Of a stretch of 11,813 nt of DNA, positions 1 through 11,813 are shown piece after piece. The stretch covers positions 1 through 11,813 of IMG/VR virus record IMGVR_UViG_2869947659_000003. The stretch is one strand, 5' to 3'. The notes under the pieces are model-generated. The model saw nothing but the letters and a program-made list of their open reading frames with translations, had not been told where the DNA came from and made no database searches. Position numbers and translations under genes: made by a program. This DNA is from a virus (taxonomy: Duplodnaviria > Heunggongvirae > Uroviricota > Caudoviricetes). How positions within the stretch are numbered: the first letter of the stretch is position 1; the number at the start of each line of letters is the position of its first letter.

Positions 1-819
1 TTAAGCAGCCATCTGATGATATTTTTCCCTGAAGGCTGCCGGGGAGATATTCCCCAGACGAGAGTGACGACGCTGACGATTGTAGAAAATCTCAATGTAT
101 TCCCGTATTACTGAGATGGCTTCATCCCGGTTATTAAAACGATAGTGGCTCAGGCTCTCATTTTTCAGCGTTCCCCAGAAGCTTTCCATCGGAGCGTTGT
201 CGTAACAGTGACCTTTACGCGACATTGATGTTTTCAGACCAGACTGCTCCTGTATGACCCGGTAATCGTATGCGCAGTACTGTGAACCTCGATCAGAGTG
301 GTGGATTAGCCCGGCAGGTGGGCGCTGGCTCCTGAGCGCCATAAACAGGGCTTTACCTGTCAGCTCTTTTGTCATGCGCTCTCCCATGGCGTAGCCGACA
401 ATTTCGCACGTATAAACATCTTTGATGCCAGCGAGGTACAACCATCCCTCCTGTGTGGCAACATACGTCAGGTCCGCCACCCAGACCTGATTTGGTGCTG
501 TAGGAGCGAACGTCTGGTTCAGCAGATTTGGCGCAACTGGCAGATTGTGGTTCGGGTTCGTAGTCGCTCTGAACTTGCGTTTCTGCTTACAGCGTAGCCT
601 TAGCTCCTTACGAAGACGTGCCAGTCGGTCACGACCAACGATGATGCCATTCTCTGCCAGCTCCGTCTGGAGCCGCCGGGTTCCATATGTTTCGCGAGTG
701 CGGATATGTGCCACCTTAATCTCCAGTTTTAGCCGCTCATCACTTTGTTTTCTGTCTGAGGGTTCATGCTGTACCCAGTTGTAATAACCGCTCCTGGATA
801 CACCAAATACCTGACACAT
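1..819 (-). CDS. IS3-family transposase OrfB (DDE/integrase catalytic core), probably made as an OrfAB fusion by -1 frameshift
   Basis: 272-aa ORF with rve-like motifs (HSDRGSQYCAYDY, KGHCYDNAPMESFWGTLK, FYNRQRRHSRLGNISP). Stop codon sits at window positions 1-3. The ATG at 819 is probably not the biological start. Confidence 0.9.
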   Translation of the reverse strand: MCQVFGVSRSGYYNWVQHEPSDRKQSDERLKLEIKVAHIRTRETYGTRRLQTELAENGIIVGRDRLARLRKELRLRCKQKRKFRATTNPNHNLPVAPNLLNQTFAPTAPNQVWVADLTYVATQEGWLYLAGIKDVYTCEIVGYAMGERMTKELTGKALFMALRSQRPPAGLIHHSDRGSQYCAYDYRVIQEQSGLKTSMSRKGHCYDNAPMESFWGTLKNESLSHYRFNNRDEAISVIREYIEIFYNRQRRHSRLGNISPAAFREKYHQMAA

Positions 820-854
820 CGCTTCAATGGGAAATTGTTGTCGCCATTGTTCGA

Positions 855-1157
855 TTAACGCGTATTTTTCAGCGACTCCTGTGCAAAATACGCTGTTGCT
901 TTTTTTAATATATCTCGCTCAAGGCGAGCTTCATTTAACGCCTTACGCAGTTGCAGAATTTCAGATTCCAGTTCAGCCACCGTGCGGGAACCAGGAGTAC
1001 CGAGCCCTTTTCTGGCGGCGGTAACCCATTGTCCTAAAGTGCCTTCAGGAAGGGATAATCGGGAAGCGCCTTCACTGATCGAAAGTTGATTTTCAAGAAC
1101 CGTTCTGACAGCTTCGGCTTTGAACTCTTTAGAGTAACGTTGGTTTTTTCTGCTCAT
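855..1157 (-). CDS. IS3-family transposase OrfA (helix-turn-helix DNA-binding subunit)
   Basis: 100-aa ORF directly upstream of OrfB; N-terminal HTH-like region and C-terminal leucine-zipper-like segment (LESEILQLRKALNEARLERDILKKATAYFA) typical of IS3 OrfA. Confidence 0.85.
   Translation of the reverse strand: MSRKNQRYSKEFKAEAVRTVLENQLSISEGASRLSLPEGTLGQWVTAARKGLGTPGSRTVAELESEILQLRKALNEARLERDILKKATAYFAQESLKNTR
897..908 (-). other. Putative programmed -1 ribosomal frameshift site (A-rich slippery run) near the 3' end of orfA
   Basis: Minus-strand mRNA reads GAT ATA TTA AAA AAA GCA at the codons for ILKKA; the IS3 family typically uses an A AAA AAG-type heptamer here. Not experimentally supported. 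Confidence 0.5.
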
Positions 1158-1256
1158 TATTAGCTCCTTCTGATGCCATTCTATTTCAGGAAGGAGTGTC
1201 CGTTAAACTCAGGCTACCTCAGTTCGCCGCTGGCGAATTTCGAAAATATCAACCAG

Positions 1257-1538
1257 TTACCGCCGTAACCGCTCCGGCTTCTTCCAGTGGTACGTAATTT
1301 TTGCTTTTTCCCTGTACGTCTGCACGCGGCGACGGTAGGCCAGCATTTCAAGAACGCGGATCCGTATGTCGCGCATATCAACATCATTAAGCTGGATACC
1401 ATCACGGCGCATCACCTCAGCAACAACACGCACATAATTTTCAGCGGTCACGCTGTCCGGCTGTGTGGCCTGTTCGTCATGCTGCTGGCTGATTCCGGTA
1501 ACGCGGCGGATTAATCCCAGTAGTTCGGCTTCTGTCAT
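1257..1538 (-). CDS. Hypothetical protein, 93 aa
   Basis: ORF with a G-rich Shine-Dalgarno (GGGGG, 4 nt before the ATG). No recognisable family. Stop codon lies 36 bp from the IS end, so the gene appears intact. Confidence 0.55.
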   Translation of the reverse strand: MTEAELLGLIRRVTGISQQHDEQATQPDSVTAENYVRVVAEVMRRDGIQLNDVDMRDIRIRVLEMLAYRRRVQTYREKAKITYHWKKPERLRR

Positions 1539-1564
1539 TGTGCCCCCATCGCTCTGATAGTCTG

Positions 1565-1640
1565 GTGTCGTCGGGTCCTTCCTGGAATTATGGCCCGTTA
1601 CGGGGCGGCGACCTCGCGGTTTTTCGCTATTTATGAGCTT
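1565..1640 (+). other. Lambda-type cos site, copy 1 (cosQ-like ACGGGTCC-type segment plus cosN; 12-nt cohesive-end sequence GGGCGGCGACCT at 1603..1614)
   Basis: Sequence CGGGTCCTTCCTGG...GTTACGGGGCGGCGACCTCGCGGTTTTTCGCTATTTATGAGC closely matches the lambda genome termini as I recall them (right end ...ACGGGTCCTTTCCGG...GTTACG, left end GGGCGGCGACCTCGCGGGTTTTCGCTATTTATGAAAA). Confidence 0.8.
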
Positions 1641-1649
1641 TTTTAGAGG

Positions 1650-1800
1650 GAGGTTGTTGTTTAATTGTTTGTCATATCCATTTGATAACTAAGTAAAAAT
1701 AAAGAGCAATACAACAACCTGATAGTGTTTTTTTGATGCTAAAAATAAAAAAATGCTAATTGAATCAAATAGTTTTAAAAAAATACGTGGTTGTTGTATT
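1650..1800. repeat. AT-rich region with three GTTGTTGT / ACAACAAC repeats on the cosB side of cos copy 1
   Basis: GGTTGTTGTTT at about 1652, ACAACAACC at about 1710 and GGTTGTTGTAT at about 1790, seen directly. Possible terminase-small-subunit or IHF-type binding elements. Confidence 0.35.
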
Positions 1801-1831
1801 GCGTATTTGATGGCGTAACAGAAAGTGATTT

Positions 1832-2272
1832 TTAACTTTGCTGTTCTGTAACGACTGATTGTTCCATGCTGGCACGGCAAACGCTTACGGCATGACGCCA
1901 CCCAGCCAGAAAGCCGGCCATTTTATTTCGCGCTTTGCTCACTTCTTCCGGTGAGTAGCCGTAAATCTGTAAACCTTCATCAAATCTATGTTCTGTTTCT
2001 TCACTGGAGTACTCGTCACGCTCAGATGAAAGCAGCCTGGCAACCATAATTTTTTCCAGCGCACTGGTTTCTACGTGATATCCAATGGCCTCAAGATGGC
2101 TTTTACCTGAAGACCAAAGCAATGTATGCCCGATGTGATAACCGCCGGACTTTCCGCGATCCGCATTAAGATACGGCATCCCTTGTTTGGTCCATGCGCG
2201 AATAGTGGTTCTGTTTACCTTGAAATGTTCAGCTATTTCCTGCTGACTTACAAAACAAGCCTTATTAATCAT
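1832..2272 (-). CDS. Nu1-like terminase small subunit homologue (N-terminal winged-helix cos-binding domain); candidate packaging-redirection protein
   Basis: N-terminus VSQQEIAEHFKVNRTTIRAWTKQGMPYLNADRGKSGG aligns with lambda Nu1 VNKKQLADIFGASIRTIQNWQEQGMPVLRGGGKG. Only 146 aa versus 181 aa for Nu1, with a divergent C-terminus. RBS GAGGT precedes the ATG; the gene sits about 90 bp downstream of cos copy 2, as in lambda. Confidence 0.8.
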   Translation of the reverse strand: MINKACFVSQQEIAEHFKVNRTTIRAWTKQGMPYLNADRGKSGGYHIGHTLLWSSGKSHLEAIGYHVETSALEKIMVARLLSSERDEYSSEETEHRFDEGLQIYGYSPEEVSKARNKMAGFLAGWRHAVSVCRASMEQSVVTEQQS

Positions 2273-2339
2273 AATGTTACCTCAATTGACTGATTAAATG
2301 TTAATCAAGTGGTGGTGGTGTCACCTTCACGGAAAAACG

Positions 2340-2400
2340 TCATAAATAGCGAAAACCCGCGAGGTCGCCGCCCCGTAACGGCTCCATATGCCGGAAAGGA
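2340..2400 (-). other. Lambda-type cos site, copy 2 (cosQ-cosN; cohesive-end sequence reverse-complemented at 2362..2373), correctly oriented for the Nu1-like gene
   Basis: Minus strand reads ACGGGTCCTTTCCGGCATATGGAGCCGTTACG GGGCGGCGACCT CGCGGGTTTTCGCTATTTATGACG, near-identical to lambda cosQ/cosN. Confidence 0.85.
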
Positions 2401-2405
2401 CCCGT

Positions 2406-2430
2406 AAAAAAAAGCCGGATTTCTCCGGCC
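2406..2430 (-). terminator. Rho-independent terminator downstream of the capsid-like operon
   Basis: Stem GCCGGA / TCCGGC with 4-nt loop, followed on the minus strand by eight U residues. Confidence 0.7.
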
Positions 2431-2435
2431 TTGTC

Positions 2436-2849
2436 TCAGATGGTTTTCAGTATGCGATCGATGTCGCCGTCATCGCCCTGGTTTCTGCCATCGTATGCCA
2501 TGCCAGCTGATACGGCTTGCGGGCTGTGCATGTCCATAAAGTTTTCAAAGGCTGCGGTAAGCTCTGGTGCAACCTTTGGGCGCTCCTGCTCTATGGTCAT
2601 GTTCAGGATTTCACGAGCATTATCGACGCTAATACATGGCACGTTTGCCATTGCACGTAACAGCGGCTGATAGTCTTTATGCTCATGAAGCGCCATAATC
2701 GCATCAGCGCGCGGCTTGTCCTGCTCTTCCAGTTTGTTTAGTTGATATACGGCCTCATAGGTTGATAAACCTCTGTCAGCCATTGCCCGCGCTTCGGCTT
2801 TAAATTTACTCGCCAGCGGTAGCGTCATGATGCTTTCATTCGTTGCCAT
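2436..2849 (-). CDS. Hypothetical protein, 137 aa (last gene of the capsid-like operon)
   Basis: ORF with AGGGGGA Shine-Dalgarno, 12 nt downstream of the gpD-like gene. No recognisable family. Confidence 0.6.
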   Translation of the reverse strand: MATNESIMTLPLASKFKAEARAMADRGLSTYEAVYQLNKLEEQDKPRADAIMALHEHKDYQPLLRAMANVPCISVDNAREILNMTIEQERPKVAPELTAAFENFMDMHSPQAVSAGMAYDGRNQGDDGDIDRILKTI

Positions 2850-2861
2850 CGTTCCCCCTGC

Positions 2862-3197
2862 TTATCGGGCCAGCGGCTGAACGGATACGCCGGAACCCGC
2901 AAAGGCGGCGCATTTTTTCGCATCGGTGTCGACGCTCTCAGGCCAGTTAACGGCGGCAATATTGAATATCCCCGTCTTGTAACACTGTGCTGATTTCTGC
3001 TTTGACGTGTCCACAGGGTACGAGGTCAGATAAACAGCCTTGCCAGATTCCTTACCATCCCACGGCTTAAACTCGCCATTGTCCGCCAGCATCAGCGGGG
3101 TAAATTCCTGAATAACGCCAGCATCAGCGGCAAAATGTACCAGCGTCGTGGCGACCTGCTGACTGCCTGCAAATAACTCAATGTATGGAGTGTCCAT
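2862..3197 (-). CDS. Lambda gpD-like head decoration protein homologue
   Basis: TPLMLADNGEFKPWDG...YKTGIFNIAAVNWPESVDTDAKKCAAFAGSGVSV aligns with lambda gpD TPLMLDTSSRKLVAWDG...[35 protein letters not shown] (from memory). GGGGGA Shine-Dalgarno. Confidence 0.75.
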   Translation of the reverse strand: MDTPYIELFAGSQQVATTLVHFAADAGVIQEFTPLMLADNGEFKPWDGKESGKAVYLTSYPVDTSKQKSAQCYKTGIFNIAAVNWPESVDTDAKKCAAFAGSGVSVQPLAR

Positions 3198-3208
3198 AGA
3201 ATCCCCCG

Positions 3209-4264
3209 TTAACCAATTTTGACGGTAACAAATTTGCGAATATCTGCCGGAACCGGCTGCGGTGCGCTGTGCGTCTGCACGTACTCAATCGCCGGATCGC
3301 CGTCCTCAATCCAGTTTTTCGGGTAAAACATGTTTTGCGTTGCGCCTGTTCTTACTGCGTCCTGATCCATAATCGCACCATAGGCCACCAGCCCTTTATT
3401 GTTGGTGTTGCCCAGAACCAGCAAATCAGGCTCAAGGAAATATTTTTCTGTGCCGTCGCTGTCAGTGTATTTGCCGGAATAGACGATAAGGGCAATATCG
3501 CCCAGATAGCCTTTAAAGCTCACCACTTCGCCCAGGTTTTTACAGGCCAGCTCTGCGGCGGACTCTGAACCACGGGAAAGATCGTACAGCTCACGGAATT
3601 TTTTAAAGCTGCGTAACGTTCGCCATACCTCAGCGCCCATAATCATGACGTTTGCGGGGCAACCAGCCTGATCGGCGTATAGTTCGATATCATAGATTGG
3701 ATCGTGGGTTTCTTTGTCCTGCTCTGACCATTTTTTCCCGTCGGCCTGCTCTATGATGTTTTTTTCCGGTATCTTCCAGTCGATTTCATAGCGCTCTATG
3801 CCTTCGCCCTCAATGATGTTTTTTCCGGTCGTTACCGCATTTACCGCCAGCCATTCCACGCGCGCTTTAATGGCGTTTATCTGGCGGCGCATGTTGCCAG
3901 TAATCAGGCGCATACGGCGATAGGTAGGGTCGTTAAGCTGTGCCGGATCTTCTCCAGCCATGCGCATGATGGTTTTCGTTGGATCGATTTCGTGCTTTGG
4001 CTTCATGTAGCCAGGTTTAATCGTGCTGGTTTCGTACCCTTTATCGCGCTGAACCTGGCTACCCACCATAGGCGAACAAAACGCCGACATGGTGACTTCT
4101 TCAATGTCCAGGGTATCCAGCATGATGTTTTGCGTGCTGAATGTCGCCACGTTCGGGAAAAACAGCGTGGTAAACAGCGGACTGAATTTAAATTCCGCAA
4201 TATCCCCGCGATTCAGGTACGCAAAAAGCTGGTTAGTGTTAAGTACCATTGCTTTTACTGTCAT
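3209..4264 (-). CDS. Lambda gpE-like major capsid protein homologue
   Basis: Conserved blocks along the whole 351 aa shared with lambda gpE: EFKFSPLF, KPGYMKPKHE, DPTYRRMRLI, WSEQDKETHDP, WRTLRSFK, RGSESAAE, SFKGYLGDIALIVYSGKY, LVLGNT, FYPKNWIEDGDPA, QSAP. Start codon overlaps the stop of the upstream 68-aa ORF (TAATG). Confidence 0.9.
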   Translation of the reverse strand: MTVKAMVLNTNQLFAYLNRGDIAEFKFSPLFTTLFFPNVATFSTQNIMLDTLDIEEVTMSAFCSPMVGSQVQRDKGYETSTIKPGYMKPKHEIDPTKTIMRMAGEDPAQLNDPTYRRMRLITGNMRRQINAIKARVEWLAVNAVTTGKNIIEGEGIERYEIDWKIPEKNIIEQADGKKWSEQDKETHDPIYDIELYADQAGCPANVMIMGAEVWRTLRSFKKFRELYDLSRGSESAAELACKNLGEVVSFKGYLGDIALIVYSGKYTDSDGTEKYFLEPDLLVLGNTNNKGLVAYGAIMDQDAVRTGATQNMFYPKNWIEDGDPAIEYVQTHSAPQPVPADIRKFVTVKIG

Positions 4265-4470
4265 TATTCCCCCCCGTGAACCTGATTCATACCCAGCGCC
4301 GCGCGTAAATAGGCGCGTACCTGCCAGCCTGTTGACGGCTCAACCATCGCCAGCGGATCAAGTCCTGCCGCAATGCCTGCTTTTACGTTCTGCTGGTGGC
4401 GTTCCTTGAGCGCCTTCACGATGTCGGGGCTTATGTACACCGAAACACCGCCTTTTTTCTCTTCAGCCAT
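4264..4470 (-). CDS. Hypothetical protein, 68 aa (first gene of the capsid-like operon)
   Basis: AGAGGA Shine-Dalgarno upstream; translationally coupled to the gpE-like gene. No recognisable family. Confidence 0.5.
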   Translation of the reverse strand: MAEEKKGGVSVYISPDIVKALKERHQQNVKAGIAAGLDPLAMVEPSTGWQVRAYLRAALGMNQVHGGE

Positions 4471-4498
4471 AGTAAGAAATTCCTCTTTGACTTAAAAA

Positions 4499-4555
4499 AT
4501 CATAACTGGATGTTCATCCAGTTATGATTATAATCATGATCGCATTTTGTGCAAT
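4499..4555 (-). promoter_or_regulatory. Sigma70-like promoter for the capsid-like operon overlapped by a 30-bp perfect palindrome (candidate operator)
   Basis: Minus strand -35 TTGCAC (4549..4554), 16-bp spacer, -10 TATAAT (4527..4532). Palindrome ATCATAACTGGATG tt CATCCAGTTATGAT at 4499..4528 covers the predicted transcription start. Confidence 0.5.
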
Positions 4556-4633
4556 GATATTGAGTTGCGTTGCAAATTATGAAATGATTATCCCGATCAT
4601 GTGTGTCAGTGCACCAAAAAACCTCATATGCAA

Positions 4634-4672
4634 AAGCCCGATAACCCACCTCTGACCTTATCGGGCTTTTTT
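4634..4672 (+). terminator. Hairpin terminator (10-bp stem AGCCCGATAA / TTATCGGGCT, 13-nt loop, T-run)
   Basis: Seen directly; followed by TTTTTTAT on the plus strand. A weaker U-run follows on the minus strand, so it may act in both directions. Confidence 0.5.
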
Positions 4673-4770
4673 ATCTGCCTGCAAAGATGTTGAACAAAAA
4701 TTAACCACAACCATCATCTTTTTTGCATCAAAACAATTAAAAACAATAAATTACGCTCATGATGATGATG

Positions 4771-4847
4771 ACGATAAAATCACAAAAATGCGCTTTTTTC
4801 CGCGCCTCCCGCCCCGTGTTCAGGCCCACCCCGCCAGGAGGACCCGT
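4771..4847 (-). other. Degenerate third cos-like element (diverged duplicate of cos copy 2)
   Basis: Plus-strand 4771..4869 aligns with 2341..2430 over about 100 bp (…CCGCCCCGT…GGACCCGTAAAAAAGCCGGATTGCTCCGGC). The cohesive-end core is not intact (GGGCGGGAGG instead of GGGCGGCGACCT). Confidence 0.55.
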
Positions 4848-4869
4848 AAAAAAGCCGGATTGCTCCGGC
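4848..4869 (-). terminator. Rho-independent terminator downstream of ssb
   Basis: Stem GCCGGA / TCCGGC with loop, followed on the minus strand by six U residues; near-identical to the terminator at 2406..2430. Confidence 0.7.
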
Positions 4870-4885
4870 TTCTGTCACTCGTCGC

Positions 4886-5308
4886 TTAAAACGGTATGTT
4901 ATCCCCGTACGGATCATCATTCCCCGCCTGTTGTTTTGCCCTGTTCAGCGCGTCAGTAGCCTGGCCCTGTTGACCTTTTTTGCCGCCCAGTCGCGCCGTT
5001 CGCGCACTGATTACACTGTCTGCGATAACCTGCCAGCCCTGCCGCGTTTCCCCGTTCTGTCCGGTCCACTGGCTGACCTGCATCGTGCCGGATACGCTGG
5101 CAACGTCGCCTTTTTGATGTTTAGCCAGGAAGTCGGCCTGCTTACCAAATGCGATGACCGATAGCCATAACGTCGCCTGCCCATCCTGCGCCTGACTACA
5201 TGGCAACGATACCGCCATACGCGCCAGCGTCATCGGTGTGCCCTTGCTGGTCTGTTTTACCTGCGGGTCGTCCACCAGCCGCCCGTAAGCGGCTATCTGT
5301 GCTGTCAT
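4886..5308 (-). CDS. ssb: Single-stranded DNA-binding protein (SSB-like OB-fold protein with acidic C-terminal tail)
   Basis: OB-fold-like core (TLWLSVIAFGKQADFLAKHQKGDVASVSGTMQVSQWTGQNGETRQGWQVIADSV) resembling the E. coli SSB core, and a C-terminal tail ending DDPYGDNIPF (compare the SSB DDDIPF tip). Start overlaps the stop of the upstream ORF (ATGA). Confidence 0.7.
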   Translation of the reverse strand: MTAQIAAYGRLVDDPQVKQTSKGTPMTLARMAVSLPCSQAQDGQATLWLSVIAFGKQADFLAKHQKGDVASVSGTMQVSQWTGQNGETRQGWQVIADSVISARTARLGGKKGQQGQATDALNRAKQQAGNDDPYGDNIPF

Positions 5309-5562
5309 AATTCCACCTCTCCGGTTTTAACGTTGATGGTTGTTACCTGTTCCGCTTCGGCAATCTCCCGCTCTGTCAGCGTGGCAAAGTTTGCCGCTGC
5401 TGTGGTCATGAATGCGCTTATCAGGTCGGGATGTGCTTTCGCGTATCCTTCCCCCGTGTTGCGGTCGATGATTTTTATCGCCACTCTCAGCCAGTGCTCT
5501 GTAAGGTCAATGGCGCGGTTATGCTGCTTCTTCTGATTATTAAGTTTTCCTGATGTGCGCAT
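5305..5562 (-). CDS. Hypothetical protein, 85 aa, translationally coupled to ssb
   Basis: ORF with ATGA overlap to ssb. No recognisable family. Confidence 0.5.
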   Translation of the reverse strand: MRTSGKLNNQKKQHNRAIDLTEHWLRVAIKIIDRNTGEGYAKAHPDLISAFMTTAAANFATLTEREIAEAEQVTTINVKTGEVEL

Positions 5563-5610
5563 TTTTATTTTTACCCCCTCGTTTAAAAAGTTTTGAGTTG
5601 TGCCTCCCCT

Positions 5611-5837
5611 TGTCTACCTTATCTACCTTACTGGCTCTCATGCCAGTAATGGCGCGGCTTTCAGCGGGGTAGAGTGCTTTTATCCACTATCTACCCCGTA
5701 TCTACCTCCCTGTCTGATTCAGGTAAAATCAGGTAGAGAGGGTAGATAGTAGGTAGACAGTGAAAAAAGGCTGTCTACCTAAGTTAATATACTGAATTAA
5801 ATGTATTTTTCTTTACTCAGGTAGACAGGGTAGACAG
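5611..5837. repeat. Iteron array (candidate replication origin) with a DnaA-box-like site
   Basis: At least 11 copies of TCTACC / GGTAGA-containing 8-9-mers in both orientations (for example TGTCTACC 5611, TATCTACC 5620 and 5688, GGTAGAGAG 5732, GGTAGATAG 5741, GGTAGACAG 5752, 5820 and 5829, CTGTCTACC 5771). TTATCCACT at 5680..5688 is an 8/9 match to the DnaA box. Lies immediately 3' of the primase gene. Confidence 0.7.
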
Positions 5838-5850
5838 CCATTGCAAAAAA

Positions 5851-7599
5851 TTATAAAAACGCGTCGCAATCGTCTGTTGTTATTGCGTTAGTCTGCGTTA
5901 CTCCCTTAACTTTCCGCGTAATATATTCATGTCCGTAAACTTTCGCGGCTGGCTTCATAGCCTTGCCAAAGTCATTTACGTTTAGCGGTTTGCTCCTGCC
6001 TGCGTATGCCATAAACGCCAGATAGACGCGGTAAAGGCTGTTTCTGGTCGTGTACTTCACTGAATCGCCACCGCCACCCATCATCAGGCCGCGCGCTTCC
6101 TCCAGAAAATTCAGGAACTGGCAAAACTCAATAACCGGATCCGTCTGTTGCTTTATTGCCAGAGCTTCATCACCGTCACGCTGTTCCAGTAGTAAAGCCC
6201 GTGCCTTCTCAGGGTCGGTAAAGTTCGCCAGCAAGCGGCGGATAATGACAGGGATTTCAGCCGCGATCTTTTCCGGTAGCTCCCTGTCTTTTTCTGCCTC
6301 GCTTACGATATTGTCGAAGCGGAAAATAACCCGACGACGTGACACGCCTCCGGCCCGTTCGGTGAATATCATCGGGTTGTTATTGGTCGCCAGCACCACC
6401 GCCCTGATTACCGTAGTGAAACGCTTTTCATATTTCGGGTTGATTTCCACGGGGTCGCCGCCCGTGATTTTCTTGATGCCCGTGCCTTCGCCTGTATATT
6501 TCGGCTGGTCTGCCAGGACGATAAGACGACTCCCGACAACCTGCGCACGCCCACCAGCATCATCAAGCGATGTCATTTCCGCGCTTACCGTGTTTTGTTT
6601 CCCCGCTAAAAGGCTGGCGATGTGGGTGAATGTACTTTTGCCGCTCCCGCCGTCTCCGGTGGCCTCAATAAACATCTGCCAGTCGTACCGGTTCGCCATA
6701 ATCATGTACAGCGCGGCACATATACGCATCATCTTGCGCTGGTCTTTTCCAGCTGCGTGATCAAGCCATTTATGAAAGTTTGGCGCGTTATCGCGGATGT
6801 TCTCCCCAGGTGCTGGTGGCGTGTACTCAATGCCGTTGTGCGTGGTGATCCAGTTCTCCGGCGTGTGCGGGGAAAATTCCCCCGTTTTCAGGTCAAGCGC
6901 ACCATTGGCGAACGGCAGCAAATCGCCGGACGGCTCCCCCATTGGTTCGGCAATAACTTTTAACGCTTCAACGGCGTTATTGATCACGCGTTTGCTGAAA
7001 GTGGCCCTGTGCTCTGAATAGATCGCCACCATTTCGCGGCTCAGCTCCATTGTGCTGATCGGACACCATACCCCGCCGCGCCATACGTGAACGATTTCAC
7101 TTTCCGGATGCACACAAACGCCATCAAAGCGCTCGGCAAGCAGCTGCGCGCGCTCACTGTCTGCCATTTGTGCCAGTTGCGTATTTTTCTGCTCCGGCAT
7201 GGTAAGCCCTGCGGCAATATTTTCACGCTCAGCATTCAGATAGCGCCGCCAGTTTTCACACTTCTGGACGTGCATTCCTTCGGGGTAAAAATTTGCGTCC
7301 TGAATATCTGCCGCCGCCAGCTTCTGACCAATCTTTTTGGTCTCCACTAAATCCAGTTCTCCGGCCTGGTACAGCCTTACGCGCTTTTTCCCATCCGGAA
7401 CAATTTTCAGCGCATCAAGTTCGGCAAGCTGATTTGGCCCAAGCCACACAGGCGGCACATTATCGCCGGATGCGGGGCCATCCTGCTCCTGCCATTGTTT
7501 CGCGTGCGACCAGGCATCACTACCCGCGAAAATAATTACCTCTGTGTCTTTGTGTTTTATTCCGCGTGGCTGTTTTTTTACGTTCGGTGCCAGTTTCAT
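5851..7599 (-). CDS. P4-family primase/helicase (alpha-like replication protein; D5-type SF3 helicase with Walker A)
   Basis: 582-aa ORF with Walker A EATGDGGSGKST and a downstream Walker B-like LIVLAD segment; overall resemblance to the P4 alpha / phage-plasmid primase C-terminal region. Coupled by ATGA overlap to the upstream small ORF. Confidence 0.88.
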   Translation of the reverse strand: MKLAPNVKKQPRGIKHKDTEVIIFAGSDAWSHAKQWQEQDGPASGDNVPPVWLGPNQLAELDALKIVPDGKKRVRLYQAGELDLVETKKIGQKLAAADIQDANFYPEGMHVQKCENWRRYLNAERENIAAGLTMPEQKNTQLAQMADSERAQLLAERFDGVCVHPESEIVHVWRGGVWCPISTMELSREMVAIYSEHRATFSKRVINNAVEALKVIAEPMGEPSGDLLPFANGALDLKTGEFSPHTPENWITTHNGIEYTPPAPGENIRDNAPNFHKWLDHAAGKDQRKMMRICAALYMIMANRYDWQMFIEATGDGGSGKSTFTHIASLLAGKQNTVSAEMTSLDDAGGRAQVVGSRLIVLADQPKYTGEGTGIKKITGGDPVEINPKYEKRFTTVIRAVVLATNNNPMIFTERAGGVSRRRVIFRFDNIVSEAEKDRELPEKIAAEIPVIIRRLLANFTDPEKARALLLEQRDGDEALAIKQQTDPVIEFCQFLNFLEEARGLMMGGGGDSVKYTTRNSLYRVYLAFMAYAGRSKPLNVNDFGKAMKPAAKVYGHEYITRKVKGVTQTNAITTDDCDAFL

Positions 7600-7895
7600 T
7601 TTTTACCCCTGAATACGTTAAGCATCTTTTTTATTTCCTGAATATTGGCGCGTGCTTTCTCCCTGCTGGTTGGTTTACTGCGGGGCGCTGCCTGTACCAG
7701 AGAAAAATCACGCCGAAACTGATAAACAGGCATCACGCAATCATATTCGTAGCCTTCACGACGGTAGGTGATGCGCCGTTCTGCCACGCCTTTAATCGTT
7801 ACCATGCCGCCATATTTATCGCGGTAAATATCGCCGTTCATAAATTCAGGACGAGCGGGGCCGCTGGCAGTAACGCCAGAATTTTTATTTTTCAT
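7596..7895 (-). CDS. Hypothetical protein, 99 aa, translationally coupled to the primase
   Basis: ORF; stop overlaps the primase ATG. No recognisable family. Confidence 0.6.
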   Translation of the reverse strand: MKNKNSGVTASGPARPEFMNGDIYRDKYGGMVTIKGVAERRITYRREGYEYDCVMPVYQFRRDFSLVQAAPRSKPTSREKARANIQEIKKMLNVFRGKK

Positions 7896-7900
7896 GTTTT

Positions 7901-8131
7901 TTATTCTCCGGTGTGCTGCGCTTTATTATTCTCGTGAATTGCCATCACTGTATTTAATTCATTAATAACAGGCGTTAATAGCGTACGCACGGCAGAAAAC
8001 ATCATTGAATCAGATTCATCGCCACTTTCCGGCACATCAATTAACTTAAGTAGTAATGCGTCCATTTCCTTTGCGCGGATTAATGCGTTTTCAGAGTGGA
8101 TTAATACTTCAAAAGGGATTTTATGCATCAC
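7901..8131 (-). CDS. Hypothetical protein, 76 aa
   Basis: ORF in the same operon orientation. No recognisable family. Confidence 0.5.
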   Translation of the reverse strand: MMHKIPFEVLIHSENALIRAKEMDALLLKLIDVPESGDESDSMMFSAVRTLLTPVINELNTVMAIHENNKAQHTGE

Positions 8132-8405
8132 AAATTTTCTCCCTTATTCTTTTAATGTCCTCATTAAGGATGTCTGTAACTTTTATCAGCGAGTTTTTGG
8201 CAATTATTTTTATTGTTTTAAGTTTTCTTTTGTCGTGCTCCGACTGTGATTTTCTCTCCATAATCTCCACCATGTGGGTAACATCAACGAGCGCACGTAT
8301 CAGTATTTGCATTGCTTCTTCTGCTGCGTCCGGTGTGGTTTTATTGCACATGTACCCCTCCGCATTTTTTTTCGTTAGAAATAAGCGTTCTTCTTTCCTG
8401 TTCAT
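8121..8405 (-). CDS. Hypothetical protein, up to 94 aa (start uncertain; internal ATGs at 8351 and 8309)
   Basis: ORF overlaps the upstream ORF (8341..8571) by 65 nt in a different frame, so the true start may be an internal Met. Confidence 0.4.
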   Translation of the reverse strand: MNRKEERLFLTKKNAEGYMCNKTTPDAAEEAMQILIRALVDVTHMVEIMERKSQSEHDKRKLKTIKIIAKNSLIKVTDILNEDIKRIREKICDA

Positions 8406-8571
8406 CGCTCAGGAATACGCAGACCTCACCGCTAAGGCGTTTAAGTAAGCCGATGATTGCCCCTGATTCGCTGTCGGTCATCATGCCAGGGTAATCCTCT
8501 GCCAGTGCGCAAATAACTTCGATTTGGTGGGCGCGTTCTGCTGCCTGTTGTAGTGTGATTTCCTGACTCAT
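8341..8571 (-). CDS. Hypothetical protein, 76 aa
   Basis: ORF whose ATG overlaps the stop of the upstream 66-aa ORF (ATGA at 8568..8571). Confidence 0.5.
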   Translation of the reverse strand: MSQEITLQQAAERAHQIEVICALAEDYPGMMTDSESGAIIGLLKRLSGEVCVFLSDEQERRTLISNEKKCGGVHVQ

Positions 8572-8768
8572 AAGCCTACCCCCTGACGAATACGGGCGGC
8601 GAATACCATCACGCAGCCATCAGGAGATTGCTGGCGTGCTTCCTGTTCGCTGGTGGCCACGATGTGAATCACGCGCGGTTGTGCGGTGCTCAGGGCGATA
8701 AAACGCCAGATGTATTTATTCAGGTTGTACGAGTCCCGCCCTTGCGGGTGTATGGTATAATTTCTCAT
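8568..8768 (-). CDS. Hypothetical small protein, 66 aa (possibly Icd-like); first gene of the replication operon
   Basis: Sub-ORF MRNYTIHPQGRDSYNLNKYIWRFIALSTAQPRVIHIVATSEQEARQQSPDGCVMVFAARIRQGVGL, taken from the C-terminal end of the 469-aa track ORF, with a GAGG RBS. Its WRF...PRV..I.A.SE.EAR...FAAR pattern resembles what I recall of Icd-like proteins in P4-like prophages; tentative. Confidence 0.45.
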   Translation of the reverse strand: MRNYTIHPQGRDSYNLNKYIWRFIALSTAQPRVIHIVATSEQEARQQSPDGCVMVFAARIRQGVGL

Positions 8769-8859
8769 AGCTGCCTCGATAATCTTGCTATCGTTGGTGG
8801 TTAGAAGCCCCGTTACTGCTCCTACAGTGCGGGGTTTCGTCGTTTCTGCACCTTGCATT

Positions 8860-8945
8860 AACAAGGTGTAAGTAACTTTATTTATAGGTGGCTTACATGT
8901 CAATGCTTTTATGTAAGACTTTTTATGTGTATATTGTCTTACACT
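8860..8945. promoter_or_regulatory. Divergent promoter/operator region with four TGTAAG / CTTACA half-sites
   Basis: TGTAAG at 8867 and 8912, CTTACA at 8892 and 8938; CTTACAT-N12-ATGTAAG forms an inverted repeat. Sits between the plus-strand RHH-like gene and the minus-strand replication operon. Confidence 0.45.
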
Positions 8946-8964
8946 TTCATTGAGAGGATTACAG

Positions 8965-9270
8965 ATGGCTACAGGTTCAAAAAACGCAAAATCACAATCA
9001 CTGACAGCTCGGATCCCGCATGATGTTATTGAAGGCATGGAATCCGTAAAACTGGACGGTGAAAGCAACGCCGGATTCATAGTAACCGCCATGCGCGGTG
9101 AAATCGCCCGCCGCCAGGCAGAAGGAAGCAGAGAAAACCCCCTGATTTCTTCGCTCGATGCACTGGCGCAGGTGGAAAAACTCGGAATCAAAGCCGCCGA
9201 GGAGATCGGGCAGCTCGTCACTGTCGCACGTGAAGAACTCCAGCGCCGCAAGACCAAAGAACCAGAGTAA
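8965..9270 (+). CDS. Probable ribbon-helix-helix (CopG/Arc-like) DNA-binding protein, about 101 aa
   Basis: Strong RBS AGAGGA 6 nt before the ATG at 8965 (the track ORF begins at TTG 8950). N-terminus LTARIPHDVIEGMESVKLDGESNAGFIVTAMRGEIARR fits a beta-strand/helix/helix RHH pattern. Fold assignment is by pattern, not by search. Confidence 0.55.
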   Translation: MATGSKNAKSQSLTARIPHDVIEGMESVKLDGESNAGFIVTAMRGEIARRQAEGSRENPLISSLDALAQVEKLGIKAAEEIGQLVTVAREELQRRKTKEPE

Positions 9271-9327
9271 TCACCATCAGCGCCGTGGTGTAAGGTATTA
9301 CGGCGCATTGCTATGCAGGACAACACA

Positions 9328-9501
9328 ATGACCGATAAAGAATTGACCAAAACATTATCACCGGCACGGAAAAGACGGCGCAGAAAGATAGAGCATGAAT
9401 CAGAAAGATTCGCGCCATGTGCTTTTGCCCTTGAGCAATTCCTTAAAGAGTACAGGGAAAAGCGCTCATTGCAGGTATGGCAACGAACTGAACCAGACTG
9501 A
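9328..9501 (+). CDS. Small basic protein, about 57 aa (the track ORF begins at the upstream ATG 9313)
   Basis: AGGA 7 nt upstream of ATG 9328; N-terminal KRRRRK cluster; followed by a plus-strand terminator. Confidence 0.45.
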   Translation: MTDKELTKTLSPARKRRRRKIEHESERFAPCAFALEQFLKEYREKRSLQVWQRTEPD

Positions 9502-9577
9502 TTGCATTGCCCACCAGCCGCAAATGTGGCATTGTTGGCAATGCTCATGCGTTGGGGATAACGTGTAGCTTGTGTCG

Positions 9578-9609
9578 AGGGGCCACCGTAGCGGGTGGCC
9601 TTTGTTTTG
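9578..9609 (+). terminator. Rho-independent terminator ending the plus-strand cassette
   Basis: Stem GGCCACC / GGTGGCC with loop GTAGCG, followed by TTTGTTTTG. Confidence 0.6.
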
Positions 9610-9612
9610 CCC

Positions 9613-9977
9613 GTTATTCGGCAATTGTGGCGCTTCTCCACATGGTTGATATAATCCCACTGCTCAGATTCATTTTTTGCGCAGTAGGTTAATTGTTCAC
9701 AAAGGCGCTCCGGCAACGGGGCGCTTTTTGTTTTTATTAGTTTGTAGAAACCTGACTCAGAGATAATGCTCATATTCTGATTGCCGTCAGGGGTGTAAGT
9801 TAAATTTACTCCCTTTTTATCATCAAACATCTGCAACACTCTGGCGTTAACAATATTGGTTTCACTCCCGCCAGTAAGGCCGGAAATAACCGGAATACTT
9901 TCGGCAAAATTTTGCAGATTCTGTTTTTCAGGACGAACGAAGCCCCGCCCTTGTTCGGGAGAATATCCAGTATTCAT
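9613..9977 (-). pseudogene. Possible 5' remnant of a gene downstream of alpA (N-terminal ~120 codons of the 469-aa track ORF); extent uncertain
   Basis: The N-terminal part (MNTGYSPEQGRGFVRPEKQ...EQWDYINHVEKRHNC) has protein-like composition. The rest of the 469-aa frame runs antisense through the plus-strand genes and is Ser/Cys/Arg-rich, so it is probably not a real protein. No in-frame stop exists until 8568. Confidence 0.3.
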
Positions 9978-10029
9978 GGTTAGATCTCTGTATTAGTGGA
10001 TGGGTGGCGGCTGTGTGCCGCCAGCCTGA

Positions 10030-10218
10030 TTAGTGAACTGCCTCGCAGCTGTCCTTCCATGCCAGAACTTCGGATAAAGACCAGCCAACGGAACGACCGC
10101 CCAGCTTACGCCGTGATGGGAATTGTCCGGCTTTTTCCAGGCGGTACCGACATGAGCGGCTCAGGCCTGTAAGTTGCTGACATTCTTTTTCACGTATAAA
10201 GCGATCTGTGCTTAACAC
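10030..10218 (-). CDS. alpA: AlpA/Vis-like winged-helix regulator (prophage excisionase / transcriptional activator family)
   Basis: 62-aa protein resembling CP4-57 AlpA and P4 Vis-type proteins in size, composition and position next to a P4-type integrase. Start is GTG at 10218 with AAGGGGGA upstream. Confidence 0.8.
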   Translation of the reverse strand: MLSTDRFIREKECQQLTGLSRSCRYRLEKAGQFPSRRKLGGRSVGWSLSEVLAWKDSCEAVH

Positions 10219-10254
10219 AATTCCCCCTTTGTTGTTTCTTAAAGAGTCATTGGG

Positions 10255-10300
10255 TGGATTATTGGGTTGGGTTGTGTCGGATTGTGTCAGGGTGTTTGTG
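10255..10300. repeat. Tandem roughly 10-bp direct repeats (GGTTGTGTC GGATTGTGTC AGGGTGTTTG) upstream of alpA
   Basis: Seen directly, in the alpA 5' region. Confidence 0.4.
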
Positions 10301-10498
10301 GAATGGCAAACACTGGCGGCGGTCGTTTTACAGAAGCATGGGGAATGAGAATAAAAACTCTTTTAATTCATTATGATGCAAAGGCATAAAATTTTACTTT
10401 TACGCCTTTTTTACATATTTTTAAGAGTGATTCGCCAGTGTATAAAAAAACAGTACACCTATAAAAATCAAATGGTTATTACGATGGCTGATTTTTAA

Positions 10499-10560
10499 CC
10501 CGTTGTTCCATTTTGTTCCTTGTTGTTCGTCGTTGTGTCTCGTTGTTTCACGTTGTCCGC
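10499..10560. repeat. Six tandem roughly 10-bp direct repeats (consensus tCGTTGTTyC) just 3' of the integrase gene
   Basis: CCGTTGTTCC, ATTTTGTTCC, TTGTTGTTCG, TCGTTGTGTC, TCGTTGTTTC, ACGTTGTCCG in helical phase. Candidate binding array for Int arm-binding domain, AlpA/Vis or IHF-type proteins. Confidence 0.4.
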
Positions 10561-10583
10561 ATCCTGAAAAATCGCAAAAAAAA

Positions 10584-11813
10584 TTATATTTCTCTGGCTA
10601 TTGGCAATGTGGTTACGTTTTCATGTGTTCCCGCCAGTATCCCTAACCGCTCCGTCCACATATCCAGCGCGTCACGTTTCGCATCCAGATAACGGGAATG
10701 GTTATAGACTCGTTGCATCCCTGGCATCTGATGACCTGTAAGCTGCTCCACGACGTGAGGATCCACGCCTAAATCGTTCAGCATCGTTGTAAAGGTGCGC
10801 CGGATGTCATGCAGTGACCAGTGAGGGTGTTTTAGCCTCCTGTGCGCTAATCTACCGTACTGCGACACGCTTGTTTCCTGTTTCACTTCCCCCAGCAATA
10901 AGCCCGTGTGCCTGTTCTGCTCCACCAGCTGCGTGACGAACGGTAGTATTGCTTCCGGTATGGGCCGGAATATTGCCACCTTCGTTTTGCTGTGTTCTTT
11001 CGGCACGGTCCAGAGCATTTCGGTAAAATCCCACTCGCTGATCTCCGATAACCTCAGTTCTACCGTCCGGCATCCGAAAACAATCAGGAGGCGGATTAGT
11101 GCGACGTAGTAAGGGGAAAATATTTTTTTGTCCAGTGCCTGCAATAATTCGCCAAGTTCTTTGGTGCTTAAGACACGCTCGCTTATATCCGGTTTTTTCC
11201 TAACGTCCGCCACACTCATATCATCAAGAACGTTGCTGATTGCATAGCGCCGCCTCCGGCAGAACTTAAGCGCCTGTTTGCACGTCTGTAGCAAGAATCC
11301 GGCAGTAACAGGCGTTCGCTTTGCCACCTGGTCAAAACAGGCCAGCCAGTGCCGTAGCTCGCATTTATCCAGCGGCATAGCACCAATGTGCTGTATTACG
11401 TGATTATTAAGGCGCTTTTTCAGGGCGGCATAATCCACGCGGTTTTCCTTTGCGTACGACTCAAGCCAGTAGGTGAGCGCATCGCCAACCGTTACCGGCT
11501 TTAACGCTTCCTGTACGGTGTAATTAAGCTCATGACGTGGATTTTTCCCCTCTGCCAGCCATGCGCGACACTGGGCGGCTTTTTCCCTGGCTGATTTCAG
11601 GCTCAGATCAGGATAATTTCCCAGCTTAATGCGTTCCGGTGGTGCCCCCCTTCCCGTTCCGGCCCTGTAAGTGAAATACCAGGTTAAAAGGCCACTGGTT
11701 GAATGCCTGACGCTCAGGTTTCCACCGTCATTAAGAAAGGCTGTTTTTTGGGCGGGTGTGCCGTTGATTTTCCTCAGCTGTGTATCGCTCAGTTTGTTAA
11801 GTGCTCTGCTCAT
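10584..11813 (-). CDS. int: P4-type tyrosine integrase (site-specific recombinase)
   Basis: 409-aa ORF with N-terminal arm-binding-like region and C-terminal catalytic motifs (HDIRRT, GHQ, RVYNHSRYL with the catalytic Tyr). The ATG is at the window edge; alignment with the P4 Int N-terminus suggests this is close to the true start. Confidence 0.93.
   Translation of the reverse strand: MSRALNKLSDTQLRKINGTPAQKTAFLNDGGNLSVRHSTSGLLTWYFTYRAGTGRGAPPERIKLGNYPDLSLKSAREKAAQCRAWLAEGKNPRHELNYTVQEALKPVTVGDALTYWLESYAKENRVDYAALKKRLNNHVIQHIGAMPLDKCELRHWLACFDQVAKRTPVTAGFLLQTCKQALKFCRRRRYAISNVLDDMSVADVRKKPDISERVLSTKELGELLQALDKKIFSPYYVALIRLLIVFGCRTVELRLSEISEWDFTEMLWTVPKEHSKTKVAIFRPIPEAILPFVTQLVEQNRHTGLLLGEVKQETSVSQYGRLAHRRLKHPHWSLHDIRRTFTTMLNDLGVDPHVVEQLTGHQMPGMQRVYNHSRYLDAKRDALDMWTERLGILAGTHENVTTLPIAREI

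Follow-up and report, generated by a model that had tools for sequence, protein, structure and literature searches.

What do five small open reading frames (ORFs), packed head to tail in front of a primase-helicase gene, contribute to the element that carries them? The locus lies in IMG/VR virus record IMGVR_UViG_2869947659_000003, of which positions 1 to 11,813 (11,813 nt, hereafter the window) were analyzed; coordinates are positions in this window, and the small ORFs were named ORF1 to ORF5 in reading order. Judged from gene order and similarity, the element is a Gram-negative phage-inducible chromosomal island (PICI) of Escherichia coli or Shigella, of the type of the prototype EcCICFT073 (E. 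coli CFT073, NC_004431, 1379443-1384046), and not a P4-like satellite. The five ORFs would form the promoter-proximal half of its early/replication operon, a modular set coupled to the replicase gene. The probability of this overall picture was put at roughly 60%, and confidence in the function of any single protein was much lower.

ORF1 to ORF5 occupied positions 8768-7596 of the minus strand and led into the primase-helicase gene (Table 1). An earlier annotation of this DNA, termed here the sequence-only reading, had placed five small ORFs in the same span. The span and the lengths of 66, 76 and 99 aa (ORF1, ORF2 and ORF5) were retained, the minus strand is now specified, and ORF3 and ORF4 were shortened from up to 94 to 76 aa and from 76 to 75 aa, respectively. 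From ORF1 to the primase gene, successive junctions measured -4 (ATGA), -11, -8, +5 and -4 nt (ATGA), bearing out the coupled layout and the ATGA overlap into the primase described before. Every start was preceded, 5-11 nt upstream, by a G-rich Shine-Dalgarno-like motif that falls within the final codons of the gene before it. The junctions themselves were observed, and a handover of ribosomes from ORF1 down to the primase-helicase would be the coupling they point to. No terminator-like site was seen on the gene strand between 5851 and 8875.

The five ORFs (at least 60 aa each) covered 99.6% of the 1173 nt, compared with a mean of 19.8% and a maximum of 69.7% in 1000 dinucleotide-preserving shuffles, none of which reached 95%. 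Because the shuffles never approached the observed coverage, the arrangement is not a product of chance. Each ORF matched a PHROG family of its own over essentially its full length, the profiles spanning 63-83 positions. Ratios of nonsynonymous to synonymous substitution (dN/dS; pooled pairwise among related loci, Nei-Gojobori) were 0.39 for the Icd domain of ORF1, 0.31 for ORF2, 0.66 for ORF3, 0.24 for ORF4 and 0.30 for the DUF4222 domain of ORF5, and all five families are under purifying selection. On these grounds the ORFs are best regarded as genuine, separately translated genes, legible as one operon with the primase gene.

Table 1. Position and character of the features discussed for the 11,813-nt window
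Feature	Position	Strand	Description
ORF1	8568..8768	minus	66 aa, ATG start, isoelectric point (pI) 10.0 (basic), first cistron of the operon
ORF2	8341..8571	minus	76 aa, pI 4.8 (acidic), ATGA overlap with ORF1
ORF3	8121..8351	minus	76 aa, near-neutral charge, 11-nt overlap with ORF2
ORF4	7901..8128	minus	75 aa, pI 5.0 (acidic), 8-nt overlap with ORF3
ORF5	7596..7895	minus	99 aa, pI 10.2, net charge +11.5, ATGA overlap with the primase gene
Primase-helicase (pri-rep), D5/P4-type	5851..7599	minus	582 aa, distal gene of the coupled series
Exchangeable cassette segment	7927..8322	minus	most of ORF3 and ORF4; CFT073 carries three different ORFs there
Structured 5' leader	8769..8868	minus	about 100 nt, three hairpins, the last ending next to the ORF1 ribosome-binding site
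Sigma-70-type promoter candidate	8875..8903	minus	-35 TTGACA 8903-8898, 17-nt spacer, -10 TAAAGT 8880-8875; prediction
YlcI/YnfO-family gene	8965..9270	plus	101 aa from ATG 8965; NF041551 72.3 bits; phrog_6522 over full length, E 3.5e-57
alpA	10030..10218	minus	phrog_2790 'excisionase and transcriptional regulator', E 5.9e-18
int	10584..11813	minus	integrase, Integration zone

For the overlap between the ORFs at 8341..8571 and 8121..8405, a frameshift or a nested start had been proposed. The 94-aa version of ORF3 from ATG 8405 is merely the longest possible frame. The match to phrog_5146 starts at residue 19 of that frame, ATG 8351 is preceded by GGAGGGG, and the CFT073 homologue in RefSeq begins with MCNKTTPDAA. 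In 12 of 12 distinct contexts examined, a GGAGG-type motif was followed by the start M(C/H)N(K/N); among them were loci in which ORF3 directly follows the Icd-like gene without any upstream in-frame ATG. The ATG at 8405 was present only where ORF2 precedes ORF3, being part of the ORF2 coding sequence. Given the position of the PHROG match, the RefSeq start and the conservation over the 12 contexts, ORF3 starts at its own ATG 8351, not at 8405, and the proposal was not upheld. For ORF4, initiation at GTG 8131 would give 76 aa; the database homologues have 75 aa.

That ORF2 and ORF3, or more of the ORFs, are pieces of one gene, joined by programmed frameshifting or transcriptional slippage or left over from a degraded gene, was considered extremely improbable. 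A run of eight A (8372-8365) does lie within the overlap, the ORF3 frame stays open there for 18 codons ahead of its ATG, and fused frames exist elsewhere: ORF2, ORF3 and G8 (a gene of the CFT073 island) as 221 aa in locus L007, where RefSeq annotates a 148-aa protein, and ORF3 with G8 as 149 aa in locus L022, besides others. However, passage from ORF2 to ORF3 would need a +1 shift and not the usual -1, ORF3 keeps its own Shine-Dalgarno motif and ATG in all 12 contexts, including those devoid of ORF2 or of the upstream ATG, and the fusions fall at homopolymer runs, which are prone to both assembly errors and natural indels. A frameshift would thus be superfluous for explaining the overlap, and low-level slippage may occur. 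The idea of a single degraded larger gene, which the sequence-only reading had itself named as the outcome that would overturn it, is ruled out because the families, each with its full-length profile, occur independently, recombine in varied sets and show dN/dS below 1. ORF2, ORF3 and ORF4 were also considered as paralogues and rejected as such, with nothing better than E about 1 in pairwise BLASTP among these three ORFs of about 76 aa and at most 2.5% probability in HHalign of their family profiles.

Neighboring small ORFs were fused into single frames of 125-228 aa in a few loci (L007, L013, L022 and L044), which may be due to natural indels or to homopolymer sequencing errors. At other junctions, G-runs form the ribosome-binding sites. 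If real, such fusions would hint that neighboring small proteins act together.

The block was then compared among 80 IMG/VR loci with a DUF4222 alignment, five annotated genome loci and the window; ORFs of at least 55 aa could be chained from the Icd-like gene (ORF1 in the window) to the DUF4222 gene (ORF5) in 82 loci. IMG/VR was used for diversity because a primase scan of species-representative genomes gave three loci only. The Icd-like and DUF4222 genes were constant bookends. Members of an ORF4 superfamily (families G3, G5, G6 and G9, which merge at E<=1e-3) stood directly upstream of DUF4222 in 76 of the 82 loci. Between the bookends, 0-4 further small genes were drawn from about ten families, including those of ORF2 (51 loci) and ORF3 (20 loci) as well as another, longer gene of the Icd/Ash-like kind. 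Five loci had nothing but unrelated genes between the bookends, and others had up to four or five genes. The combination found in the window occurred in 3 loci only, the commonest one in 36.

Junctions were conserved as well, the Icd-like gene meeting its next gene at -8, -11 or -4 nt in 81/82 loci and DUF4222 meeting the replicase gene through ATGA (-4 nt) in 78/81. The genes after DUF4222 fell into three unrelated replicase clusters (73, 5 and 2 loci) and one short unclustered ORF, with RefSeq names of DNA primase, RepA helicase, DUF927 or DUF5906 proteins. Nucleotide similarity to CFT073 ended at 8323, just inside ORF3, and restarted at 7926, in the last ORF4 codons; since it breaks and resumes at these positions, the exchange boundaries coincide with junction sequences that bear ribosome-binding sites. 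The block consists of a conserved core (Icd-like gene, ORF4-type hairpin and DUF4222) and an exchangeable middle.

Such conserved junctions could also be expected if the small ORFs worked in cis only, as translated spacers that relay ribosomes and prevent polarity to secure synthesis of the replicase, and whose peptides have no function. The embedding of every ribosome-binding site in the last codons of the preceding gene, the overlap classes kept over 82 loci, the importance of Icd/Kil translation for downstream expression in phages P1 and P4, and a cassette content ranging from none (5/82 loci) to four or five genes all fit this explanation. It was nevertheless judged quite improbable. Purifying selection acts on ORF1, ORF2, ORF4 and ORF5 (dN/dS 0.24-0.39), the 38 invariant columns of the DUF4222 alignment lie mostly in the predicted barrel core rather than at the junction, and the predicted folds of ORF4 and ORF5 are confident and well packed. 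In addition, ORF2 was 100% identical between islands whose neighboring genes were only 40% identical.

Assignment of the element to the EcCICFT073 type was based on 92.0% identity over 86% of the 4.5 kb from alpA to the primase gene, and on a common gene order (int, alpA, divergent YlcI/YnfO, Icd-like gene, small ORFs, DUF4222, primase, ssb, capsid, decoration). A survey of such islands distinguished four zones, Integration, Bro, Replication and Late (PMC10111431). In the window, int, alpA, the Bro/Icd zone, pri, ssb and the capsid and decoration genes followed one another in this order, all on the minus strand, and the five ORFs fell at the boundary of the Bro and Replication zones. ORF2 was 100% identical to its EcCICFT073 counterpart (WP_000076671), ORF1 89% and ORF5 75%. 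EcCICFT073 differed in carrying four ORFs between the Icd-like gene and DUF4222 instead of three, in its ORF3 and ORF4 counterparts (40-41% identical) and in its gene G8, absent from the window. It also differed in a YlcI/YnfO allele of 59 instead of 101 aa with other operator-like repeats, and in the far end, which in the window is interrupted by an IS3-family element.

For EcCICFT073, AlpA was reported to activate the downstream PICI genes and to be required for induction and transfer, and pri to be needed for replication; helper-dependent induction and packaging were demonstrated for EcCICFT073 itself only (PMC6092414). The 92%-identical CFT073 island has annotated major capsid and head decoration genes and lacks sid, delta and psu, and no match to the epsilon family of P4 was found by Pfam among the window ORFs scanned, the remaining ones not having been scanned individually. 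Of the P4-like and PICI-like elements with which the sequence-only reading had compared the locus, the PICI comparison was kept for the element as a whole and the P4 one was dropped.

The five-ORF layout is common, and RefSeq already lists the products as Icd-like, hypothetical or DUF4222 proteins. Part of the block was present in about a third of complete E. coli genomes (1939/5426), although only 5 matched at least 80% of it; none had an identical copy, the best matches being about 91-92% identical. A Shigella flexneri chromosome encoded a primase 98% identical to that of the window. Among 50,697 deposited phage genomes, tblastn found no ORF5 and a single record with ORF1, a 16.5-kb satellite-like genome that was also the only match to the DNA of the region. 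This record (locus L089; LR881103.1, 'Escherichia phage vB_KppS-Ant', 16.5 kb) contained an integrase, a regulator, a 324-aa protein ending in an Icd-like domain, two small ORFs, a primase and head genes. Its appearance is that of a satellite able to form capsids, with the eta-like gene intact, and not that of a phage.

The first gene of the block offered the clearest link to known systems. ORF1 matched the NCBIfam model NF033153 (phage_ICD_like) with 71.8 bits (cut-off 25) over residues 19-62, and the same model detected P1 Icd (73 aa, 52.6 bits) and P4 Kil, the last 65 codons of the eta/kil frame (73.9 bits). The three proteins aligned with a common motif, (Y/F)IWRF...A(T)xExEAR...F(A)AR, in which alignment ORF1 and P1 Icd were 39% identical. 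The PHROG matches of ORF1 were phrog_6196 and phrog_1743, the latter also matched by P4 Kil. Pairwise BLASTP against the P4 region gave no match, the relationship being seen at profile level, and a sequence search of solved structures returned only chance-level matches for ORF1. Its Shine-Dalgarno motif and ATG were invariant across allelic types. From these profile matches ORF1 is assigned to the Icd/Kil family, as the earlier remark that it may be Icd-like had anticipated; the C4/CI-type RNA belongs to the P1 and P4 operons and not to the protein family.

The founding members of this family are small first genes whose translation is needed downstream and whose product halts division or kills the cell. 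In the immI operon of P1 (c4 RNA - icd - ant1/ant2), Icd is the founding member of the family of ORF1, and icd, a small cistron, comes first after the c4 RNA, overlaps the next gene by ATGA and is reported to be needed for its expression (the P1 record notes that icd is apparently needed for ant expression). The operons differ in that P1 has antirepressor genes downstream, whereas the window has small ORFs and a primase gene, and in that the c4 antisense RNA controls icd, whereas Rfam revealed no counterpart of this RNA in the window.

The left operon of P4 has the order vis - eta/kil - epsilon - orf151 - orf106 - alpha, and the position of the five ORFs does parallel its kil/eta to alpha stretch, as had been proposed. 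Both elements have an AlpA/Vis homologue, an Icd/Kil-domain gene, small overlapping ORFs (8-nt overlaps) and then a primase, and each has a promoter within or behind a longer eta-like frame. Small first cistrons overlapped the next gene in all three systems: ORF1 and ORF2 by ATGA, P1 icd and ant1 by 4 nt, P4 kil and epsilon by 8 nt. Unlike in the window, however, P4 has a CI/C4-type RNA (none found by Rfam in the window) and a sid/delta/psu module in place of lambda-type capsid and decoration genes, and its epsilon (PF25738), orf151 and orf106 (DUF5375) products were not detectably related to ORF2-ORF5. The kil gene of P4 lies within eta, and translation of this region keeps the early transcript from terminating prematurely (PMC10111431). 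By analogy, ORF1 would be a translated leader that opens the operon and would encode a division-arresting product.

PHROG families 1743, 6196 and 6928 carry the label 'transcriptional repressor' (ORF1; P4 locus L088, 8168-8584), and the P4 record names L088 8168-8584 'cI gene product'. PMC10111431 describes the immunity factor of P4 as an RNA. The label probably stems from the old P4 annotation and not from a function of ORF1.

ORF1 also formed the end of a 469-codon open frame (8568-9977, minus strand), residues ~49-90 of which bore a weak Bro-N/Ant likeness (PHROG E 1.8e-5 to 3e-3; Pfam Bro-N E 0.094). The middle of this frame was without family match and ran opposite two plus-strand genes, the third codon positions of the two strands coinciding. 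At the same place in two related loci, RefSeq annotates an 'Icd-like pseudogene, missing C-terminus', and long open frames, up to 2052 nt, recurred in many loci. The frame resembles what would remain of a P4 eta-like Bro-Icd gene after an opposite-strand module had split it, with ORF1 surviving as a kil-like stand-alone gene.

ORF2, ORF3 and ORF4 belonged to no Pfam, NCBIfam or PADLOC family and were recognized by PHROGs only, in agreement with the earlier statement that no family could be named with confidence (ORF5 is DUF4222, see below). PADLOC over the five ORFs gave nothing at E 0.01, only an 11-bit match of ORF1. ORF2 matched phrog_1478 (E 2.9e-28), and its homologues formed only 22 database clusters, every named organism being E. 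coli. ORF3 was fast-evolving (dN/dS 0.66) and only 40% identical to its CFT073 counterpart. ORF4 matched phrog_2196 and had 90 homologues, mostly of 75 aa and all unnamed. Its AlphaFold2 model (predicted local distance difference test score, pLDDT, 86.7) was a helical hairpin with helices at 6-30 and 38-72, for which Foldseek against PDB returned generic helical hairpins only and no specific match. ORF3 was also tried as a HEPN/HepT RNase (PF01934) and rejected, with 14.6 bits against a cut-off of 23.5, no R-x5-H in the CFT073 homologue and 76 aa against a 120-position profile.

The derepression or anti-helper function suggested by the sequence-only reading would have the small proteins act on a helper phage or prophage by derepression, anti-repression or interference, in the manner of P4 epsilon, which inactivates the P2 repressor. 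Their position is that of P4 epsilon, orf151 and orf106 between kil/eta and alpha, ORF2 and ORF4 are small, acidic and helical, as would suit protein-binding inhibitors, ORF3 evolves fast, and the cassette is swapped between islands as would be expected of partner-specific factors. Against this, no homology was found to PF25738 or to other P4 early proteins. P4 epsilon as a control scored 170 bits against PF25738 ('Derepression'), but ORF2, ORF3 and ORF4 had no Pfam match to this family at E<=1 and aligned with epsilon at 0.1-0.2% probability in HHalign. None of the five ORFs matched the epsilon family or another named anti-helper protein (Pfam E<=1; HHalign <=1.1%), which leaves position as the ground of the suggested function, and PADLOC was negative as given above.

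ORF2-ORF5 were likewise rejected as homologues of P4 epsilon, orf151 or orf106, with no Pfam or PHROG in common and negative HHalign comparisons, save DUF4222 with orf151 (14.7%). In EcCICFT073, moreover, the helper induces the island via alpA, and the island does not derepress the helper (PMC6092414). The near-universal, conserved ORF4-type and DUF4222 genes fit a core function better than a conflict with particular partners. Action on the helper as the main role of the small proteins was held to be possible but rather unlikely.

At the other end of the block, ORF5 matched Pfam PF13973 (DUF4222) over profile positions 1-53 of 53 with 85.6 bits (gathering threshold 27), and RefSeq names its homologues DUF4222. 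The family is narrow, with 78 clusters at 50% identity among 1.84 billion representatives, and the 120 closest relatives of ORF5 came from E. coli or Shigella wherever an organism was named. Sequence search of solved structures gave none for ORF5. Its AlphaFold2 model, built from a 43-sequence alignment (mean pLDDT 74, core 87-90), was a five-stranded Tudor/SH3-like barrel (residues 20-68) followed by a long C-terminal helix (77-96).

Similar folds occur in DUF1653 proteins (PDB 3be3) and in the Tudor-like C-terminal domains of UvrD/PcrA, and several of the better BFVD structure matches of ORF5 were DUF1653 phage proteins. ORF5 differs from them by an identity of 13-19%, by the absence of a Pfam relationship and by its additional long basic C-terminal helix. 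We know of no function for DUF1653, and the RNA-polymerase-binding role of the UvrD domain is not transferable to ORF5 on fold alone. ORF5 may bind nucleic acid or else a host protein of replication or transcription. HHalign of DUF4222 with P4 orf151 (L088 7440-7895) gave 14.7% probability over 47 columns, GEIYR of orf151 being aligned with GDIYR of ORF5; orf151 may begin with a small barrel of related fold, a similarity too weak to claim. The following primase gene matched Pfam D5_N, DUF5906 and Pox_D5, TIGR01613, and phrog_864 (E 1e-170).

Upstream of ORF1, the promoter candidate agreed with the consensus at 10 of 12 positions. Comparison of 8 distinct upstream sequences, representing three allelic types, showed its -35 TTGAC and -10 TA(A/T)AGT to be conserved between repeats that differ with the allele. 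The leader had a minimum free energy of -31.6 kcal/mol (z = -3.3), a value reached by none of 200 shuffles. Its middle hairpin showed one clear compensatory pair (CG in 2 sequences, GC in 6), followed by the invariant CTTCTAACCACCAACGATAG. Rfam searches of the leader and region gave nothing at gathering score, and the two hits at E 2-4 were terminator-like hairpins on the other strand. The leader may correspond to the control regions CI/seqA of P4 or c4 of P1.

In the window, TGTAAG/CTTACA repeats (8863-8947) flank and overlap the -35 and -10 of this promoter. Other islands have the same promoter hexamers with other repeats, GTGGGCCACACCT twice or GTGCGAT, and the N-termini of the divergent YlcI/YnfO-like proteins vary with the repeats (SLTARI, ALKARV or QLNARF), a stretch which we take to be a ribbon-helix-helix-type strand. 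This co-variation of repeats and N-termini suggests the YlcI/YnfO-like protein as a candidate repressor of the early operon. The role of the repressor in Gram-negative PICIs was reported as unclear (PMC6092414).

Put together, the preferred reading of the block as the front half of an early/replication operon would work as follows. Transcription would start at the sigma-70-type promoter candidate and pass through the structured leader, under positive control of AlpA (PMC6092414) and probably negative control of the divergent YlcI/YnfO-like protein. Translation of ORF1 would open the operon, and its product would arrest division. Each cistron would pass ribosomes to the next through the binding site in its last codons and a stop codon that overlaps or abuts the next start. 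ORF2 and ORF3 would come from a stock of small cassette genes, mostly coding for helical proteins, in which recombination takes place at conserved junctions, and because of their fast turnover we infer that their products are partner-specific binders of helper-phage or host proteins. ORF4 and ORF5, the near-universal pair before the replicase gene, may be accessory replication factors for any replicase family, coupling setting their ratio to the replicase.

A bolder version, in which the stretch from the Icd-like gene to DUF4222 is a dedicated exchange site at which cassettes for small helical proteins are traded between islands by recombination at the coupling junctions and set helper or host specificity, for instance through binding of helper or defence proteins, and ORF4 and DUF4222 a replicase-independent adaptor that licenses replication via a host component such as RNA polymerase or the replisome, was regarded as speculative and unlikely.

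Several observations weigh against the preferred reading. The 82 loci are redundant, 36 being of one architecture and nearly all from Escherichia or Shigella. Conservation of C-termini may be due in part to the embedded ribosome-binding sites and not to protein function. The analogy with the P1 and P4 leader cistrons is incomplete, as no C4/CI-type immunity RNA (Rfam C4, isrK) was found at gathering score or at E<=5. No biochemical function is on record for the PHROG families of ORF2-ORF4, for DUF4222 or for DUF1653, the literature mentioning DUF4222 gives no function, and the small ORFs were not examined in the literature on EcCICFT073-type PICIs found by full-text search.

To what was known of these islands, the analysis adds a corrected map of the five ORFs, the tie of ORF1 to the leader cistrons P1 Icd and P4 Kil, and the division into core and cassette. 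This division points to priorities for deletion in studying how PICI replication starts and how the island deals with its helper; no new kind of system is revealed.

Around the block, a 62-aa ORF (9313-9501, plus strand; phrog_21027, E 1.6e-15) followed the YlcI/YnfO-like gene in the same frame, and downstream of this ORF a strong terminator-like hairpin (12-bp stem and T-run; 9701-9728, plus strand) fell within the Bro-like frame of the minus strand. At the late end of the island, two minus-strand ORFs, one of 100 aa (855-1157) and one of 272 aa running off the end of the window (1-819), resembled orfA and orfB of the IS3 family of insertion sequences (IS). This element may have truncated the island and is presumably IS600-like, which would fit a Shigella origin.

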